The notes under the pieces were generated by a model. The model did no database searches and was not told the DNA's origin. It was given only the letters and a program-made list of their open reading frames with translations. 64,000 nucleotides of DNA from an uncultured Pseudomonadota bacterium (GTDB lineage: Bacteria > Pseudomonadota > Alphaproteobacteria > Rs-D84): contig CADCGT010000001.1 in assembly GCA_902801125.1 (NCBI GenBank), forward strand, positions 97,101-161,100. Reading direction: 5' to 3'. Below are positions 58,916-64,000 of this stretch, piece after piece. The stretch's first letter is position 1, and every line of letters begins with the position of its first letter. The position numbers and the translations under genes are program-made.

Positions 58916-60490
58916 ATGAGACCAGGTCTATCGGAAGATTTAATCGCACGCGTTTTGGGTGCGGCGCCAAAATATACTTTGGCGGAATTAGAAGAAAAAT
59001 TCCCGCCACGCAATTTGCCGGATGGGGCGATGGTGACGCGTTTCGCACCAAGTCCAACCGGGTATATGCACCTTGGTGGCCTGTACCAGGCATTGATAGA
59101 TTCCAAACTTGCGTATGATACCGGTGGCGTGTTTATGTTGCGCATAGAAGATACAGACACCAAACGCGAAGTCAAAGATGCGGTCCAATTGATAATAGAT
59201 TCTTTGAATAAATTTGGAATATCGTATAACGATATGCCTGAATACGGGCCATATTATCAATCGCAACGCAAAGATATTTATCATTCGGTTGCGGCGGAAT
59301 TGTTGCGAACCGGGCGTGCATACCCATGCTTTTTAACCGCGGACGATATGGAACGCATTCGCGCGGAACAATCCGCGGCGGGCTTTGCCACCGGAATATA
59401 TGGCGAATTTGCACGCGACCGTGATATTACCCCGGACGAGATTATTCGGCGCATGGATAATGGCGCGGTGCCGACGATTCGTTTGTATTCGACCGGTGAT
59501 TCGGCACGGCGTATTTTCTGTAAAGATGCGGTGCGCGGTTCAATCGGGTTTCCGGAAAACAATGAAGATATTGTTTTAATTAAATCGAATGATGGGTTGC
59601 CAACCTATCATTTTGCGCACCTGTGCGATGACCATTTTATGCGCACCACACATGTTATTCGTGGGGAAGAATGGTTGCCGTCATTGCCATTGCATACACA
59701 ATTATTTCGTATGATGGGGTGGCAACCGCCGATGTATATTCATACATCTACGATTGATAAAATCGATAGCGAAACGGGCAAGCAACGCAAATTATCAAAA
59801 CGCAAAGACCCCGAAAGCAATGTCGCATTTTTCTTGGCCGATGGTTGGCCGACGGGCGCGGTGTTGGAATACCTTGGGAATATTGCGGCGTCGGGATATG
59901 AAGAGGCAAAATTAAAAGGCACGGTGAAAACAATCTGGGAATATGCAATCAAGCCTAAAAAAATTCCTATGTCGGGCGCGTTGTTCGATATGAAGAAATT
60001 GGAATGGTGGGCCAAAGAGTATATTGGCGCAATGCCGGTTCCCGATTTGGTGCGCGCGGTTACCGATTGGGCAAATGAATATGGTGATGAAAAACAAAAA
60101 AGTCAGGTCGCAGACCAGGCGTATTTAACAAATGTTTTGGCGATTGAACGCGACAACCCGAAACGTGTGCGCAAAGATTTTATTACATGGCGCCAGACAT
60201 TGGAAATCGTAGAATTTTTCTTTGATGAATTGTTTGTGCCGAACACTGAATACGCATATAACCGCGATGTGCTAAATGCGTTTTTGGATACATTTAATAT
60301 TGCGGATGACAAAGACACTTGGTGGAATAAAATTGTTGAAATCGCACAACGGTTCGGGGTTAAAAATGGCGATGTTGCGATGAATCTGCGCGTGGCCCTT
60401 TCGGGGCGGACAAACACGCCGGATTTGTATTCCATAATAACGGTAATGGGCGCAGAACGCGTGATTAAAAGGATAAAGGCGGTAATGTGA
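58916..60490 (+). CDS. gltX: glutamyl-tRNA synthetase
   Basis: Class I HLGG (HIGH-type) motif and KLSKR (KMSKS) motif. AAGGA RBS upstream of ATG 58916. Confidence 0.85.
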   Translation: MRPGLSEDLIARVLGAAPKYTLAELEEKFPPRNLPDGAMVTRFAPSPTGYMHLGGLYQALIDSKLAYDTGGVFMLRIEDTDTKREVKDAVQLIIDSLNKFGISYNDMPEYGPYYQSQRKDIYHSVAAELLRTGRAYPCFLTADDMERIRAEQSAAGFATGIYGEFARDRDITPDEIIRRMDNGAVPTIRLYSTGDSARRIFCKDAVRGSIGFPENNEDIVLIKSNDGLPTYHFAHLCDDHFMRTTHVIRGEEWLPSLPLHTQLFRMMGWQPPMYIHTSTIDKIDSETGKQRKLSKRKDPESNVAFFLADGWPTGAVLEYLGNIAASGYEEAKLKGTVKTIWEYAIKPKKIPMSGALFDMKKLEWWAKEYIGAMPVPDLVRAVTDWANEYGDEKQKSQVADQAYLTNVLAIERDNPKRVRKDFITWRQTLEIVEFFFDELFVPNTEYAYNRDVLNAFLDTFNIADDKDTWWNKIVEIAQRFGVKNGDVAMNLRVALSGRTNTPDLYSIITVMGAERVIKRIKAVM

Positions 60491-61224
60491 CAAACACAAA
60501 ACGGGTGCGTTTGAAAAATGTGCGGCGCGATGGGCGGGCGTCGCGTATGTTGCGTTGCCTGCGGGCGACGGGGCTGTTTCGGTGGGAACGAAAATCCACA
60601 AAATCGGAAGAGGTTATGAATATCCTTACCCATGGAATTGGTATCGGCCTTGCGATTGCGGGTTTAACATTGTTGGTTGTGTTCGCGGCAATTTATGGAA
60701 ACGCGTGGTCGGTTGTGTCGTGTGCAATTTTTGGCGCAACCATGTTCACGCTTTATTTTGGTTCAACAATGTGTCATGCACTTATTGGTCGGCGCGGCGA
60801 ATGCTTTTTCGAAGTTTGGGATAACATTGCCATCTATGCGTTGATTGCCGGCACATACACGCCGTTTTTACTGGTCAACCTGCGCGGGGCGATTGGATGG
60901 ACGGTGTTTGGAATACTGTGGGCGATTGTGATTTTTGGTGCGGTGACCAAGATTCGCAACCCGCACCAGCAACCAAAATGGACGGTCGCACTGTATTTAA
61001 TAATGGGGTGGACGTTGCTGTTTATATTGCCGGTAATGATACGTAATATTCCACCGCGGGGGCTGTGGTTTATACTGGCGGGTGGATTGTCATACACGGT
61101 TGGGGTGATATTCTACCTTTGGCGGCGATTAAAATTTTCACATGCGATATGGCACCTGTTTGTAATTGGCGGGACGGTGTGTTTTTTCTTTGCGGTGCTG
61201 TATGGCGCGATACTTGACATTTAG
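60487..61224 (+). CDS. hemolysin-III / PAQR family membrane protein
   Basis: 7-TM protein with an EEVMNILTHGIG motif. Start (GTG overlapping the gltX stop) is uncertain. Confidence 0.7.
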   Translation: MTNTKRVRLKNVRRDGRASRMLRCLRATGLFRWERKSTKSEEVMNILTHGIGIGLAIAGLTLLVVFAAIYGNAWSVVSCAIFGATMFTLYFGSTMCHALIGRRGECFFEVWDNIAIYALIAGTYTPFLLVNLRGAIGWTVFGILWAIVIFGAVTKIRNPHQQPKWTVALYLIMGWTLLFILPVMIRNIPPRGLWFILAGGLSYTVGVIFYLWRRLKFSHAIWHLFVIGGTVCFFFAVLYGAILDI

Positions 61225-61290
61225 TGATTAGTGATTAGTGGTTAGTGTTAGTGGTTAGTGAATGATGAACCCAGCGGAATCCGCAGGGTT
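61221..61290 (+). repeat. TTAGTGG-hairpin element 3' of the hemolysin-III gene
   Basis: ttagtgattagtgattagtggttagtgttagtggttagtg followed by hairpin cccagcggaatccgcaggg. Confidence 0.75.
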
Positions 61291-61301
61291 CACGCGTAAA
61301 A

Positions 61302-61420
61302 AAACCAAGGTTTAAAATCAACACTTTTTTTCAAAAAATCAAAATTTTGTTTTTTCGTAAAAACAATTACTTACAAATTTCGGTTTTTCTGCCGGGGGTG
61401 TATAGAAAAAACCTTGGTTT
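61302..61420. promoter_or_regulatory. Candidate invertible segment, orientation B (inverted relative to 41220-41338)
   Basis: Same 11-bp inverted repeats. Core 61313-61409 is the reverse complement of 41231-41327. The downstream aaccttggtttattgtacactttttatatagga leader is identical at both loci. Confidence 0.6.
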
Positions 61421-61457
61421 ATTGTACACTTTTTATATAGGAATATAGGGGAAAAAT

Positions 61458-62177
61458 ATGAGCAAAAAAACACTTTTATTTGGTGCAATTGCATCGATTA
61501 TCGCAATCAATTCAGTTATTGCGGATACAGTTGTTACTTCACGCAACTATGTAGATACCCGGGACGCGTTGAAACAAGATAAAATCACCGCCGGAACCAC
61601 GGGTAATGTTGTTCTGTATAACGGCACACAAAACGGTCAAACACAATTTAGTGAACGCGCGATTTATGATGGAACAAATGAATATGATTCTTCAACCGAC
61701 GCAAACAAACTGATTACCGCCGGTGCAGTGGATGGTATGGTTGGCGATGTATATGATTATGTAGATGACGAGATTTCTAATATTCCGGCCCCAGAATTGC
61801 CGACCGGGGAACCAAATTATGCGGTATTGTACGACAGTAATGGTAATATTGGTGGTGAGACCCCAATAGATTATTATGGCAGCGCATGGTTTGATAGTGA
61901 AGGCGGTGCAATGATAAACGGGCATGATGAAGATTTGATAACCGCCAAGGCGTTGAGGGAAAATTTGATATATGATATAAGTACCCAACATGACGATCAT
62001 GCAGACGGGGCAATTATAACAGGTCAGGCACTTATAAGATATGCGCAACCGCTTAAGACCTGTGCCGGATGGGCGGATGGAACAACAACACCGGATGCAA
62101 CCCACACCAATGCAAATTGCGTATTGTGGAATTTTCCAGAAGGAGAATACTTTTGGGAAAGTGTCGGGAGAGATTAA
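61458..62177 (+). CDS. secreted hypothetical protein, paralogue of 41376-42446
   Basis: Signal peptide. Conserved N-terminal (VxTSxxYVDxxDALK) and C-terminal (C...NC.LW) blocks, variable middle. Confidence 0.6.
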   Translation: MSKKTLLFGAIASIIAINSVIADTVVTSRNYVDTRDALKQDKITAGTTGNVVLYNGTQNGQTQFSERAIYDGTNEYDSSTDANKLITAGAVDGMVGDVYDYVDDEISNIPAPELPTGEPNYAVLYDSNGNIGGETPIDYYGSAWFDSEGGAMINGHDEDLITAKALRENLIYDISTQHDDHADGAIITGQALIRYAQPLKTCAGWADGTTTPDATHTNANCVLWNFPEGEYFWESVGRD

Positions 62178-62230
62178 ATTTTTTCTGTTTTGATATTTTT
62201 TTGTTAAAGCAACTGGGTTAGTTCACATTA

Positions 62231-62257
62231 GGCATACGGTATTAAAAATCGTATGCC
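62231..62257 (+). terminator. stem-loop / terminator-like hairpin
   Basis: ggcatacg-gtattaaaaat-cgtatgcc (8-bp perfect stem) followed by a T-rich tract. Confidence 0.5.
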
Positions 62258-62286
62258 TTGACTTTTTTATTGGGTGGGAATATAAT
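62258..62286 (+). promoter_or_regulatory. sigma70 promoter
   Basis: TTGACT, 17 nt, TATAAT. Consensus-quality. Confidence 0.65.
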
Positions 62287-62295
62287 GCGATTGTT

Positions 62296-62358
62296 ATGAA
62301 ACAATTTGTATTTATCTTGACAGCAACAACTACAACAACCCCGTTTGGGGTGCGGTAA
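62296..62358 (+). CDS. putative Thr-rich leader peptide (MKQFVFILTATTTTTPFGVR)
   Basis: 20-codon ORF with TATTTTT codons (ACA GCA ACA ACT ACA ACA ACC). It overlaps a terminator-like hairpin (gcaacaa ... ttgttgc then T6) directly upstream of thrS. Confidence 0.45.
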   Translation: MKQFVFILTATTTTTPFGVR

Positions 62359-62449
62359 AATTTGTTGCGTTTTTTCATACGCGTTTATATAATCAGAAAC
62401 AATCAAAAAAAAAATAAAAAACAAAATATAAACAGAATAGGGGTTTATT

Positions 62450-64000
62450 ATGTCTTATCCAATTGAAATGATTCGGCACTCGTTGGCACACGTGATGGCG
62501 GCGGCGGTGCAAAAATTACATCCAGATGTTAAGTTCGCGGGTGGCCCGGCGATTGAAAACGGGTTCTATTACGATTTCGATACCGATTATCGTTTTTCCG
62601 AAGAAGATTTTGAAAAGATAGAAAAAGAAATGCGCGAACTGATTAAATCAAATGGTCGATTCGAACAACGCATTATTGATTTAGATGAAGCAAAACAGAT
62701 TTTCGCAAACCAGCCGTATAAAATGGAATGGTTAAACGAATACGATGCCGTGGGCGAAAAACTGTCGATTTATACTTTCCGTGACTTTACCGATTTGTGC
62801 CGTGGACCGCATGTGGAATCAAGTAAAGATTTGCCGCGTGACGGATTCAAAATTCGCGCTGTGGCCGGTGCATACTGGAAAGGCGATTCGAAAAACAAAA
62901 TGTTGCAACGCATTTATGTTGACGCATTTGAAAGCAAAGAGGCATTGGATGCGTTCCTTAAAATGCAGGAAGAAGCCGCAAAACGCGACCATCGTAAAAT
63001 TGGTAAAGAAATGGATTTGTTCCATTTTGAACCAGAATATGCGCCGGGTGCGGTATTTTGGCACGATAAAGGCTACAAGATTTATCGTCGTTTAATTGAA
63101 TATATCCGTGCGCGTCAAGAAATGGCCGGGTATTTGGAAATTTCCACACCGTCCGTAATGGACAGATGTTTATGGGAACGCAGCGGCCATTGGGCAAAAT
63201 ACGGTGCGCATAATTATTCCGGTAAAACCCAAGATGGTAAAGTGTTCTGTGTGAAACCAATGTCTTGCCCGGGTGGAATGTTGGTATTTGGCCAGGGTAT
63301 CAAATCATATAAAGATCTGCCTATGTATTTGGCCGAATTTGGCAAGGTAAATCGTTATGAGGCTGCGGGTGCATTGTCGGGGTTAATGCGCGTGCGTGAA
63401 TTTACCCAAGATGATGCGCATATATTCTGCACCGAAGACCAATTGGAATCCGAAGTTGTAAAGATTTTGCGATTCATCAAAGATATTTATAACAAATTCG
63501 GGTTTGAAAAAATAACTATGAAATTGGCAACCCGTCCATTGTCTGAATTCCGTATCGGTTCTGACGAAATATGGGACAAGGCCGAAGGTGCATTGAAACA
63601 TGCGTTGGATGCAAATGGCATTGAATATGAAATCGCGGAAAACGATGCCGCGTTCTATGGCCCAAAAATCGACAATTATTTAAAGGATTCTATGGGGCGC
63701 GTGTGGCAATGCGGGACGGTGCAATTGGATATGAATTTGCCGGAACGATTTGATTTGTCATATATTGGCGAAGATGGTGAAAAACATCGTCCGATTATGT
63801 TGCATCGTGCAATGTTGGGGTCAATTGAACGCTTTATGGGAATTTTGTTGGAATCAACGGGTGGTAATTTGCCGCTCTGGTTGTCGCCAGAACCGGTGGT
63901 TGTTGTGCCGATTTCCGAAAAATATCGCGATTATGCCGAAAGTGTTGTTGCCGATTTGCGCGCGGCGGGAATATATGCCCGTGCCGATTTGCGTGACGAA
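62450..64000 (+). CDS. thrS: threonyl-tRNA synthetase (3' end beyond window)
   Basis: MSYPIEMIRHSLAHVMA and class II motifs. No N-terminal TGS domain. RBS AGGGG. Confidence 0.9.
   Translation, partial: MSYPIEMIRHSLAHVMAAAVQKLHPDVKFAGGPAIENGFYYDFDTDYRFSEEDFEKIEKEMRELIKSNGRFEQRIIDLDEAKQIFANQPYKMEWLNEYDAVGEKLSIYTFRDFTDLCRGPHVESSKDLPRDGFKIRAVAGAYWKGDSKNKMLQRIYVDAFESKEALDAFLKMQEEAAKRDHRKIGKEMDLFHFEPEYAPGAVFWHDKGYKIYRRLIEYIRARQEMAGYLEISTPSVMDRCLWERSGHWAKYGAHNYSGKTQDGKVFCVKPMSCPGGMLVFGQGIKSYKDLPMYLAEFGKVNRYEAAGALSGLMRVREFTQDDAHIFCTEDQLESEVVKILRFIKDIYNKFGFEKITMKLATRPLSEFRIGSDEIWDKAEGALKHALDANGIEYEIAENDAAFYGPKIDNYLKDSMGRVWQCGTVQLDMNLPERFDLSYIGEDGEKHRPIMLHRAMLGSIERFMGILLESTGGNLPLWLSPEPVVVVPISEKYRDYAESVVADLRAAGIYARADLRDE

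Follow-up and report, generated by a model that had tools for sequence, protein, structure and literature searches.

The 64,000-nucleotide (nt) stretch of contig CADCGT010000001.1 analysed here (the window), from an uncultured alphaproteobacterium of the lineage Rs-D84, ends within thrS, the gene for threonyl-tRNA synthetase (ThrRS), and upstream of this gene lies a short open reading frame (ORF) with a run of threonine codons. Comparison with related loci gives good support to the view that this ORF is a threonine-sensing leader of thrS, which very likely serves to match ThrRS production to the availability of charged tRNA-Thr. With a probability of about one half, we consider it to act as a ribosome-mediated leader-peptide attenuator on transcripts from its own promoter, P1, in a minimal version that differs from the classical one, a second promoter, P2, providing basal thrS transcription. 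For the effector step and the sign of the regulation we can offer proposals, which are weighed below against their alternatives. An earlier note on this DNA had suggested an attenuator of the classical type. Its observation of a Thr leader on thrS with its own promoter was confirmed, while the terminator proved not to be general and a classical switch was not found; in addition, P2 and a second hairpin, hairpin 2, alter the picture.

A conserved threonine-codon leader upstream of thrS

The leader ORF (62296–62358, plus strand) consists of 20 codons and a TAA stop codon, encodes MKQFVFILTATTTTTPFGVR and has no Shine-Dalgarno sequence. It reads ATG AAA CAA TTT GTA TTT ATC TTG ACA GCA ACA ACT ACA ACA ACC CCG TTT GGG GTG CGG TAA, and the run ACA GCA ACA ACT ACA ACA ACC (62320–62340, plus strand) contains six Thr codons and one Ala codon, as the earlier note had described. 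It was the sole intergenic small ORF with six of seven identical residues in the 64-kb window. Amino-acid-run leader ORFs were not found beside other genes in the window, gltX (58910) being among those that lack one. A 'CCCCIC' ORF (49909–50043) was considered as a Cys leader and rejected as a by-product of the GTTGTTGTTGTTGC repeat; cysS can be excluded as the next gene, which lacks a Pfam match. On the plus strand of 160 thrS loci, runs of at least five consecutive ACN codons occurred seven times, and four of the seven were this leader.

The leader was present in the window and upstream of thrS in all 28 of the 28 related loci, which answers the question of conservation raised in the earlier note. 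These loci carry 17 different ThrRS sequences, all of 577 amino acids. Four of them (L001, L002, L081, and L082) came from scans of genome and metagenome collections, each of which gave at least two close relatives, and the others (L161–L184) from exact-protein look-ups; their ThrRS was listed at 86–100% identity to that of the window or of L002. The leaders occur in 17 distinct nucleotide versions. In all of these, five to seven of the corresponding seven codons encode Thr, and the Thr codons vary synonymously between ACA, ACT, ACC, and ACG; in L165, for example, the run is ACA ACC ACG ACC ACA ACG ACC. The ATG is invariant, and the frame and the stop codon are kept. Because the start codon, frame, stop codon, and Thr identity are preserved while third positions vary, the leader is under selection as a translated ORF, and it is presumably translated.

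The predicted peptide is 18–20 residues long, and in 16 of the 17 versions eight mostly U-rich codons (Phe, Ile, Leu) precede the Thr run. The shared end of the leader is an invariant ACC-CCN-NNN-GGG-GTR, with or without CGG, followed by TAA or TAG. Without exception (17/17), the Thr run ends in ACC and Gly is encoded by GGG, despite the AT-rich genome. Outside the Thr run and the residues that encode a hairpin (hairpin 1, below), the peptide is poorly conserved. Thus, the amino acid is kept at positions where the nucleotides can vary, and in the CCCC/GGGG stem it is the nucleotides that are fixed.

The gene located 5' of the leader varies and encodes HlyIII, YbeY-Lnt, a TPR protein, a reverse transcriptase, or a hypothetical (secreted) protein. 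As the upstream gene changes between loci, the leader belongs to thrS and moves together with it. A covariance model built from the 17 versions found one copy in the window with 84 bits, the next best hit reaching 19, and gave no match in 98 other thrS loci (a set that does not include L147, described below).

In the window, thrS (62450–64000, plus strand) starts with the ATG at 62450 and is cut by the window end. The full ThrRS (P0001, 100% identical) has 577 amino acids and the Pfam domains tRNA_SAD, tRNA-synt_2b, and HGTP_anticodon only. It has no N-terminal TGS domain, and the enzymes of this clade start at the equivalent of ..EIIRHS.AH.. in full-length enzymes. Among the matches listed, it was 87–88% identical to proteins from animal-gut metagenome-assembled genomes labelled as Candidatus Enterousia or Alphaproteobacteria. 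Hundreds of database clusters showed ThrRS identities of 86–100%, and the full-length ones listed were TGS-less proteins of 577 amino acids. In the next relatives (L003–L005 and L083; 61–63% identity), the TGS extension was present and the leader absent; across these loci, TGS loss goes together with the presence of the leader. Enterousia, of which the source of the window is a relative, belongs to the order Rs-D84, and its genomes are under ~1 Mbp and without amino-acid biosynthesis (PMC12306168). As amino acids are not synthesised, the supply of charged tRNA-Thr would be a natural control signal for these bacteria.

Comparable leaders were rare in other lineages. Of 143 other-lineage thrS loci, one (L147) carried a small TTT-containing ORF at most 300 nt upstream. 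This leader (positions 230–372 of an uncultured high-GC proteobacterial contig) encodes MNHRAATTTATTTRSGGPVGARVR with six Thr in seven codons; a first hairpin with the Thr run as its 5' arm is followed by the terminator GAGGCCCCGG...CGGGGCCUUGUCGUUU. It looks like a classical attenuator and an independent analogue. On an unrelated high-GC metagenomic contig, L143 (2126–2250) has MTPRTLTETTSERR and a strong terminator ~70 nt before thrS, and may be a weaker case. Thr leaders on thrS thus occur outside Enterousia as well, but rarely (1–2 of 143 loci). The remark of the earlier note that such a leader would be unusual therefore holds, with one comparable case in 143 other loci, although precedents exist, for example on thrS of Streptomyces.

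Hairpin 1 overlaps the last threonine codons

The consensus fold of 14 sequences contained a single helix, hairpin 1. Its conserved core (62338–62351, plus strand) is formed by A-CCCC, a 4-nt loop, and GGGG-U, and the five pairs were invariant in all 14 sequences. The 5' arm consists of the last Thr codon and the CC of the Pro codon (CCCC at 62339–62342), and the 3' arm of the GGG codon for Gly and the GU of the Val codon (GGGG at 62347–62350). The leader ORF spans the hairpin, the stop codon being located just 3' of it. Hairpin 1 is under selection; the case for this is built on its invariance and the codon choice, the z-scores of the relatives being unremarkable. Together with its tail UGUAAUUUCUAUUU, the hairpin is terminator-like but weak, and it may end transcription.

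In the window, hairpin 1 is enclosed in an extended predicted terminator (62319–62375, plus strand). The outer stem (62319–62329 with 62362–62371) joins the beginning of the Thr run to UUUGUUGCGUU, and U6 is located at 62370–62375. Folding of 62310–62380 gave one hairpin (62319–62371) with −19.0 kcal/mol and z = −3.0, and none of 200 shuffles was as stable. The terminator in the earlier note, in which GCAACAAC pairs with TTGTTGC (62362–62368) in front of T6 and around an inner CCCC/GGGG hairpin, is indeed present, but it was found in the window alone, and what is conserved is just the inner hairpin. It is missing in the nearest relatives L178, L166, L177, and L165. L178 (ThrRS 97% identical) and L166 (96%) have ACA ACA ACG/ACC and TTTCTATTTGCG, with which the extended stem is impossible. 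L178, which shares its upstream neighbour with the window, reads TTT ACA ACA ACG ACT ACA ACA ACC ... GGG GTA CGG TAA TTTCTATTTGCGTTTTTTT, and the counterpart in the window is TTG ACA GCA ACA ACT ... GTG CGG TAA AATTTGTTGCGTTTTTT. All three 5'-arm changes between the two (TTT to TTG, ACA to GCA, and ACG to ACA) add pairs to the altered 3' arm, and one of them costs the window a Thr codon. The extended stem therefore looks like a lineage-specific strengthening of a stem that has the Thr run as its 5' arm. A similar, independent case is seen in L168, where GCG (Ala) stands in place of the first Thr codon and is paired with UUUGCGG, after which UUUU follows.

Read on the minus strand, 62338–62351 forms the complement of hairpin 1, after which comes UGUUGUAGUUGU, complementary to the Thr run. 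This combination scored as terminator-like in a simple scan, and there is no minus-strand gene nearby that it could serve.

Two predicted promoters and a covarying second hairpin

P1 (62258–62286, plus strand) has the −35 hexamer TTGACT (62258–62263), a 17-nt spacer, and the −10 hexamer TATAAT (62281–62286), at the coordinates given in the earlier note. It fits the consensus at 11 of 12 positions and was the top promoter-like site within 61400–64000. It was kept in 16 of 16 sequences, with TTGACT, TTGATT, TTGACA, or TTTACT, a spacing of 16–17 nt, and TAnnAT. The gap between the −10 hexamer and the leader ATG is 9 nt in the window and 6–10 nt over these sequences, in all of which a Shine-Dalgarno sequence is lacking. 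Because the ORF begins this close to the −10 hexamer, the leader mRNA is probably leaderless or has a 5' untranslated region (UTR) of ~3 nt.

P2, a sigma-70-type promoter (62365–62393, plus strand) that had been overlooked in the earlier note, is situated ahead of thrS and begins 6 nt past the leader stop codon. Its −35 hexamer is TTGCGT (62365–62370), its spacer is 17 nt long, and its −10 hexamer is TATAAT (62388–62393). It was likewise kept in 16 of 16 sequences, as TTG(C/T)NN, 16–18 nt, and TATAAT (AATAAT in L171 and L174), the ATAAT being invariant in the alignment. By these features, both P1 and P2 are expected to be active promoters. The thrS 5' UTR that follows (62394–62449, plus strand; 56 nt) is A-rich and unstructured, with the Shine-Dalgarno sequence GGGG at 62440–62443.

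Hairpin 2 (62366–62383, plus strand) is formed by UGCGU, the loop UUUUUCAU, and ACGCG. Its 5' arm is identical to positions 2–6 of the −35 hexamer of P2, and the 3' arm falls within the spacer of this promoter. Positions 3–6 of the hexamer covary with a spacer tetramer (GCGT/ACGC, GCAC/GTGC, GCGC/GCGC, GTGC/GCAC, and GCGG/CCGC). A perfect Watson-Crick partner of the 4-nt arm was present in 12 of the 16 sequences; in per-spacer shuffles, such a partner arose with a frequency of 0.004–0.13. The loop ranges from 3 to 10 nt, yet the distance between the −35 and −10 hexamers of P2 holds. This constant spacing despite a variable loop argues for a constraint at the DNA level, by the promoter, in addition to an RNA hairpin, and hairpin 2 is under selection. 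In the window, T6 serves as terminator U tract, hairpin 2 loop, and P2 spacer at once. A role of hairpin 2 as a terminator was considered and rejected, as it has 4–5 base pairs (bp) only, no U tract follows, and its distance to the next conserved element is variable.

Proposed mechanism and alternatives

In the mechanism that we favour, P1 would give rise to a (nearly) leaderless mRNA whose first 60 nt encode the 18–20-residue peptide. After eight U-rich codons, the ribosome would encounter five to seven Thr codons, the last of which make up the 5' arm of hairpin 1. At low levels of charged tRNA-Thr, the ribosome would dwell on the Thr run and cover or melt this arm, and read-through into thrS would increase. 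With the 5' arm free, hairpin 1 and the U-rich tract would end P1 transcripts before thrS; in the window, the hairpin would be the extended one, with its −19 kcal/mol stem and U6. Basal transcription of thrS would be provided by P2, bypassing the leader. We infer that stalling raises rather than lowers read-through. The RNA was also folded with a ribosome modelled at Thr codon 2, 4, or 6, or at the stop codon. A ribosome whose A site held Thr codon 4 or 6 abolished hairpin 1, one at Thr codon 2 left it intact, and a ribosome at the stop codon covered hairpin 1 and abutted hairpin 2.

Several points weigh against this mechanism. A conserved antiterminator or a mutually exclusive structure was found neither in the consensus fold of the 14 sequences nor in the stalled-ribosome folds. 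The thr/his/trp-type switch of the earlier note is thereby not supported: a conserved terminator/antiterminator pair is lacking, no alternative helix arises under the stalled ribosome, and the folding that the note had recommended gave no conserved mutually exclusive structures. In the relatives, the putative terminator has a 5-bp core and a bulged lower stem (−9 to −14 kcal/mol, z −0.3 to −2.4), and its tail AAUUUCUAUUU contains no clean U run. The gene-end terminators of the genome studied here are stronger than the hairpin 1 of the relatives, with stems of 7–12 bp directly followed by U4–6. Furthermore, thrS transcription would not rely on read-through alone, as P2 offers a bypass of the leader. 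There is also a kinetic problem. Judged by the standard footprints of ribosome and RNA polymerase, a closely coupled ribosome would block the hairpin whatever the Thr supply, and stalling at the first Thr codon would not obstruct the hairpin. Because the ORF runs through the hairpin and there is no antiterminator, starvation-induced read-through would not be automatic without a polymerase pause or a persistent alternative structure. The conserved design would thus need a polymerase pause, for which hairpin 1 and the −10-like TATAAT are candidates, or another effector, the candidates being Rho and mRNA decay.

Two further RNA-level arrangements were considered and rejected. An ermC-type translational switch, in which the leader would hide the Shine-Dalgarno sequence or AUG of thrS, did not fit, as the mean unpaired probability was equal in P1 transcripts, P1 transcripts with a stalled ribosome, and P2 transcripts. 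In the minimum-energy folds of the window, L001, and L167, a long-range helix between GUUAUG (62293–62298, the predicted 5' end of the P1 transcript) and UAUAAU (62388–62393, the −10 hexamer of P2 as RNA) closes the whole leader. This helix was absent from the consensus fold, and the two bases before the ATG vary in a way that would disrupt it; the pairing is probably an AU-rich coincidence.

The alternatives differ in what they leave of the sensor. If the sensor and the sign are kept and the effector is exchanged, a stalled ribosome would mask the C-rich leader from Rho, as in tnaC or toiL, or would keep the P1-thrS mRNA from being degraded at its 5' end, as in ermC; a ribosome that has finished would depart and expose the RNA, and hairpin 1 and TATAAT would be polymerase pause sites. 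We regard this as unlikely but as an alternative to be taken seriously. From the ATG to CCCC, the leader has 19–32% C and 4–17% G in 14 of 14 sequences, and the absence of a conserved antiterminator and the weakness of the terminator in most relatives are in line with such an effector. The kinetic problem would be resolved, since a long-lived stalled ribosome would act on a slow process. That ribosomes stalled on upstream ORFs can regulate Rho termination is established (PMC12121999, PMC12360218), and Seliverstov et al. proposed Rho for leader peptides without terminators (PMC1262725). On the other hand, the stretch with more C than G is only ~45 nt long and has few YC dimers (3–7), the downstream UTR is roughly equal in C and G, and the invariant hairpin 1 and the covarying hairpin 2 would be left unexplained. 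Somewhat less probable still is an attenuator of an undescribed minimal kind, in which a leaderless Thr ORF sets the fate of P1 transcripts without an antiterminator and is interlocked with P2, whose −35 hexamer and spacer encode a covarying hairpin. Polymerases that read through from P1 would then influence initiation or sigma-dependent pausing at P2, and vice versa; TATAAT would in addition act as a pause site, so that the leader ribosome has time to complete translation or to stall. If true, an essential synthetase gene in a genome of <1 Mbp would be under amino-acid-specific control by a new route.

The sign may also be the opposite one. In the attenuators of pyrBI and pyrE, which are of the coupling type, a ribosome close to the polymerase allows read-through. 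Applied to thrS, a close ribosome would prevent hairpin 1, slow decoding of Thr would uncouple the two and end P1 transcripts, and P1-driven expression would rise with the Thr-tRNA supply, with P2 as a floor. The stop codon just 3' of the hairpin, the persistence of hairpin 1 when the ribosome stalls at Thr codons 1–2, the U-rich tract 5' of the Thr run, and the missing antiterminator all agree with this, and this is precisely the situation that would call for a separate basal promoter. Such control would, however, be anti-homeostatic for an essential synthetase, while known controls of aminoacyl-tRNA synthetase genes (T-box, pheST, and the classical leader of the L147 type) induce on starvation. 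In addition, the extended 5' arm in the window starts at the first Thr codon, so that the terminator would be blocked whichever Thr codon the ribosome stalled at, which fits better with the homeostatic sign; we hold the coupling sensor to be quite improbable. Slightly more doubtful again is a separate small gene made up of P1, the ORF, and hairpin 1, which would produce an RNA of ~70 nt and/or the 18–20-residue peptide acting in trans, like rnTrpL/peTrpL of Sinorhizobium, with thrS transcribed from P2 only. P2 is conserved and complete, hairpin 1 with its U-rich tail could be an ordinary transcript end, and trans-acting attenuator RNAs and peptides exist in an alphaproteobacterium (PMC6614838). 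Against this stand the strict linkage to thrS across changing neighbourhoods and the poor conservation of the peptide outside the Thr run and the hairpin-encoding residues, and Thr codons beside the Thr synthetase gene would be an unexplained coincidence. Finally, the region could be a chance ORF, an ACA microsatellite, a T-box, or an E. coli-type ThrRS operator, all of which we consider very improbable even taken together. The run ACAACAAC is a simple repeat that replication slippage could generate, but synonymous variation and a fixed frame in the 17 versions contradict a chance ORF or microsatellite. Searches of the whole window with Rfam at gathering thresholds gave no match, including Thr_leader (RF00506) and T-box (RF00230), and with E-values up to 10 the region 62100–62600 gave chance-level hits only, such as Phe_leader on the minus strand with 15 bits against a threshold of 55; RF00230 was not matched in either search. 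An operator of the E. coli type was rejected because the 56 nt before the thrS ATG are unstructured, with no anticodon-like hairpin near the Shine-Dalgarno sequence, and the hairpin 2 loop (3–10 nt) has no anticodon-like motif. Neither of the two classical thrS controls that the earlier note had contrasted with a leader, the E. coli operator and the T-box, is thus present here.

Comparison with known leader-peptide systems

Leader-peptide attenuation as such is known in principle; what appears to be new here is the minimal, probably leaderless layout with two promoters. The element shares with the classical attenuators of thr, his, trp, leu, pheA, and pheST (leader pheM) a short ORF with codons for the amino acid of the downstream gene, regulatory codons in the 5' arm of the first hairpin, and a stop codon adjoining that hairpin; in pheST, the regulated gene is also that of an aminoacyl-tRNA synthetase. 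It differs from them in that there is no conserved 2:3 antiterminator and no separate strong 3:4 terminator, that the mRNA would be leaderless, and that a second promoter is located between leader and gene. The leader of L147 also is Thr-rich, precedes thrS, and contributes its Thr codons to the 5' arm of a first hairpin, but a canonical, GC-rich terminator with a U tail lies separately downstream, the ThrRS bears a TGS domain, and the sequence is unrelated.

Leader peptides on synthetase genes have been described for thrL-thrS of Streptomyces lividans (PMC8079986) and for trpS and leuS of Streptomyces (PMC1262725). The S. lividans thrL is a leaderless candidate, MKRVRPFLETTPGFVPAR, with one hairpin and no U tract (PMC8079986). 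The resemblance extends to the gene, thrS, the ORF, which is probably leaderless here as well, and the one hairpin without a clear U tract, as well as to Thr codons directly followed by Pro and Gly codons (..ETTPGFVPAR there, ..TTTTTPFGVR here) that encode a CC/GG hairpin. However, S. lividans belongs to another phylum and there is no sequence relationship; thrL has two Thr, whereas five to seven Thr in 17 sequence variants are seen here, and no internal second promoter was reported there. The actinobacterial ilvB-type leader (PMC1262725) likewise has regulatory codons overlapping the terminator hairpin and no antiterminator. This ilvB/thrL-type arrangement is what we found, the last Thr codons being the 5' arm of hairpin 1 and a second alternative structure being absent. 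The ilvB type differs in that it serves biosynthetic operons rather than a synthetase gene and in the poly-U that follows its hairpins, a clean U run being present here only in the extended version of the window. In pyrBI/pyrE, tnaC, and toiL, too, an ORF runs through or up to the termination signal and the ribosome position sets the transcript fate without a classical antiterminator; those systems sense UTP, free tryptophan, or antibiotics and not the cognate charged tRNA. Compared with the mechanism favoured for thrS, pyrBI differs in sign and the Rho systems in the effector.

Leader attenuation of synthetase genes is documented in few cases, and for thrS only by the weak two-Thr candidate of Streptomyces. 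The leader described here would add a clear comparative thrS case from an uncultured, genome-reduced gut alphaproteobacterium that must import amino acids. With a probably leaderless ORF running through the hairpin, no antiterminator, and an internal promoter with a covarying spacer hairpin, its layout falls outside the classical three-hairpin model. It could serve as a compact test case for a ribosome stalled at hungry codons controlling transcription without alternative RNA folds. It is also a recognisable annotation element, without an Rfam family at present, for a widespread and abundant gut genus in which it is common.

Genomic neighbourhood

The intrinsic terminator of the upstream gene (61458–62177) is located at 62230–62258 on the plus strand and consists of an 11-bp stem followed by TGACTTTTTT; its final base doubles as the initial T in the −35 hexamer of P1. 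A GC hairpin with a U tract just 5' of P1 was also seen in L081, L082, L162, L168, L002, and L167. The upstream gene encodes a 239-amino-acid protein with a signal-peptide-like N-terminus and no Pfam match, and lies between the HlyIII gene and the leader in the window and L178–L182. In L166, L177, L167, L171, and L174, the HlyIII gene is directly 5' of the leader, the 239-amino-acid gene being a strain-variable insertion. In L184 (1–850), a reverse-transcriptase (RVT_1) gene is located immediately 5' of the leader and could be part of a group II intron or a retron-like element.

In many of the loci L161–L182, a conserved ORF of 46–49 amino acids without a Pfam match is found ~60–100 nt past thrS, followed by a SPOR-domain gene and tatA. 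Unlike in many bacteria, thrS is not followed by infC-rpmI-rplT. No tRNA genes were found in the window. Degenerate tandem repeats of GTGATTAGT, GGTTAGT, and GTTAGT occur at 49831–49960 and 61224–61262, with GC-rich hairpins after each. These repeats begin right at the stop codons of an FtsK-like gene (47609–49831) and of the HlyIII gene (60487–61224).

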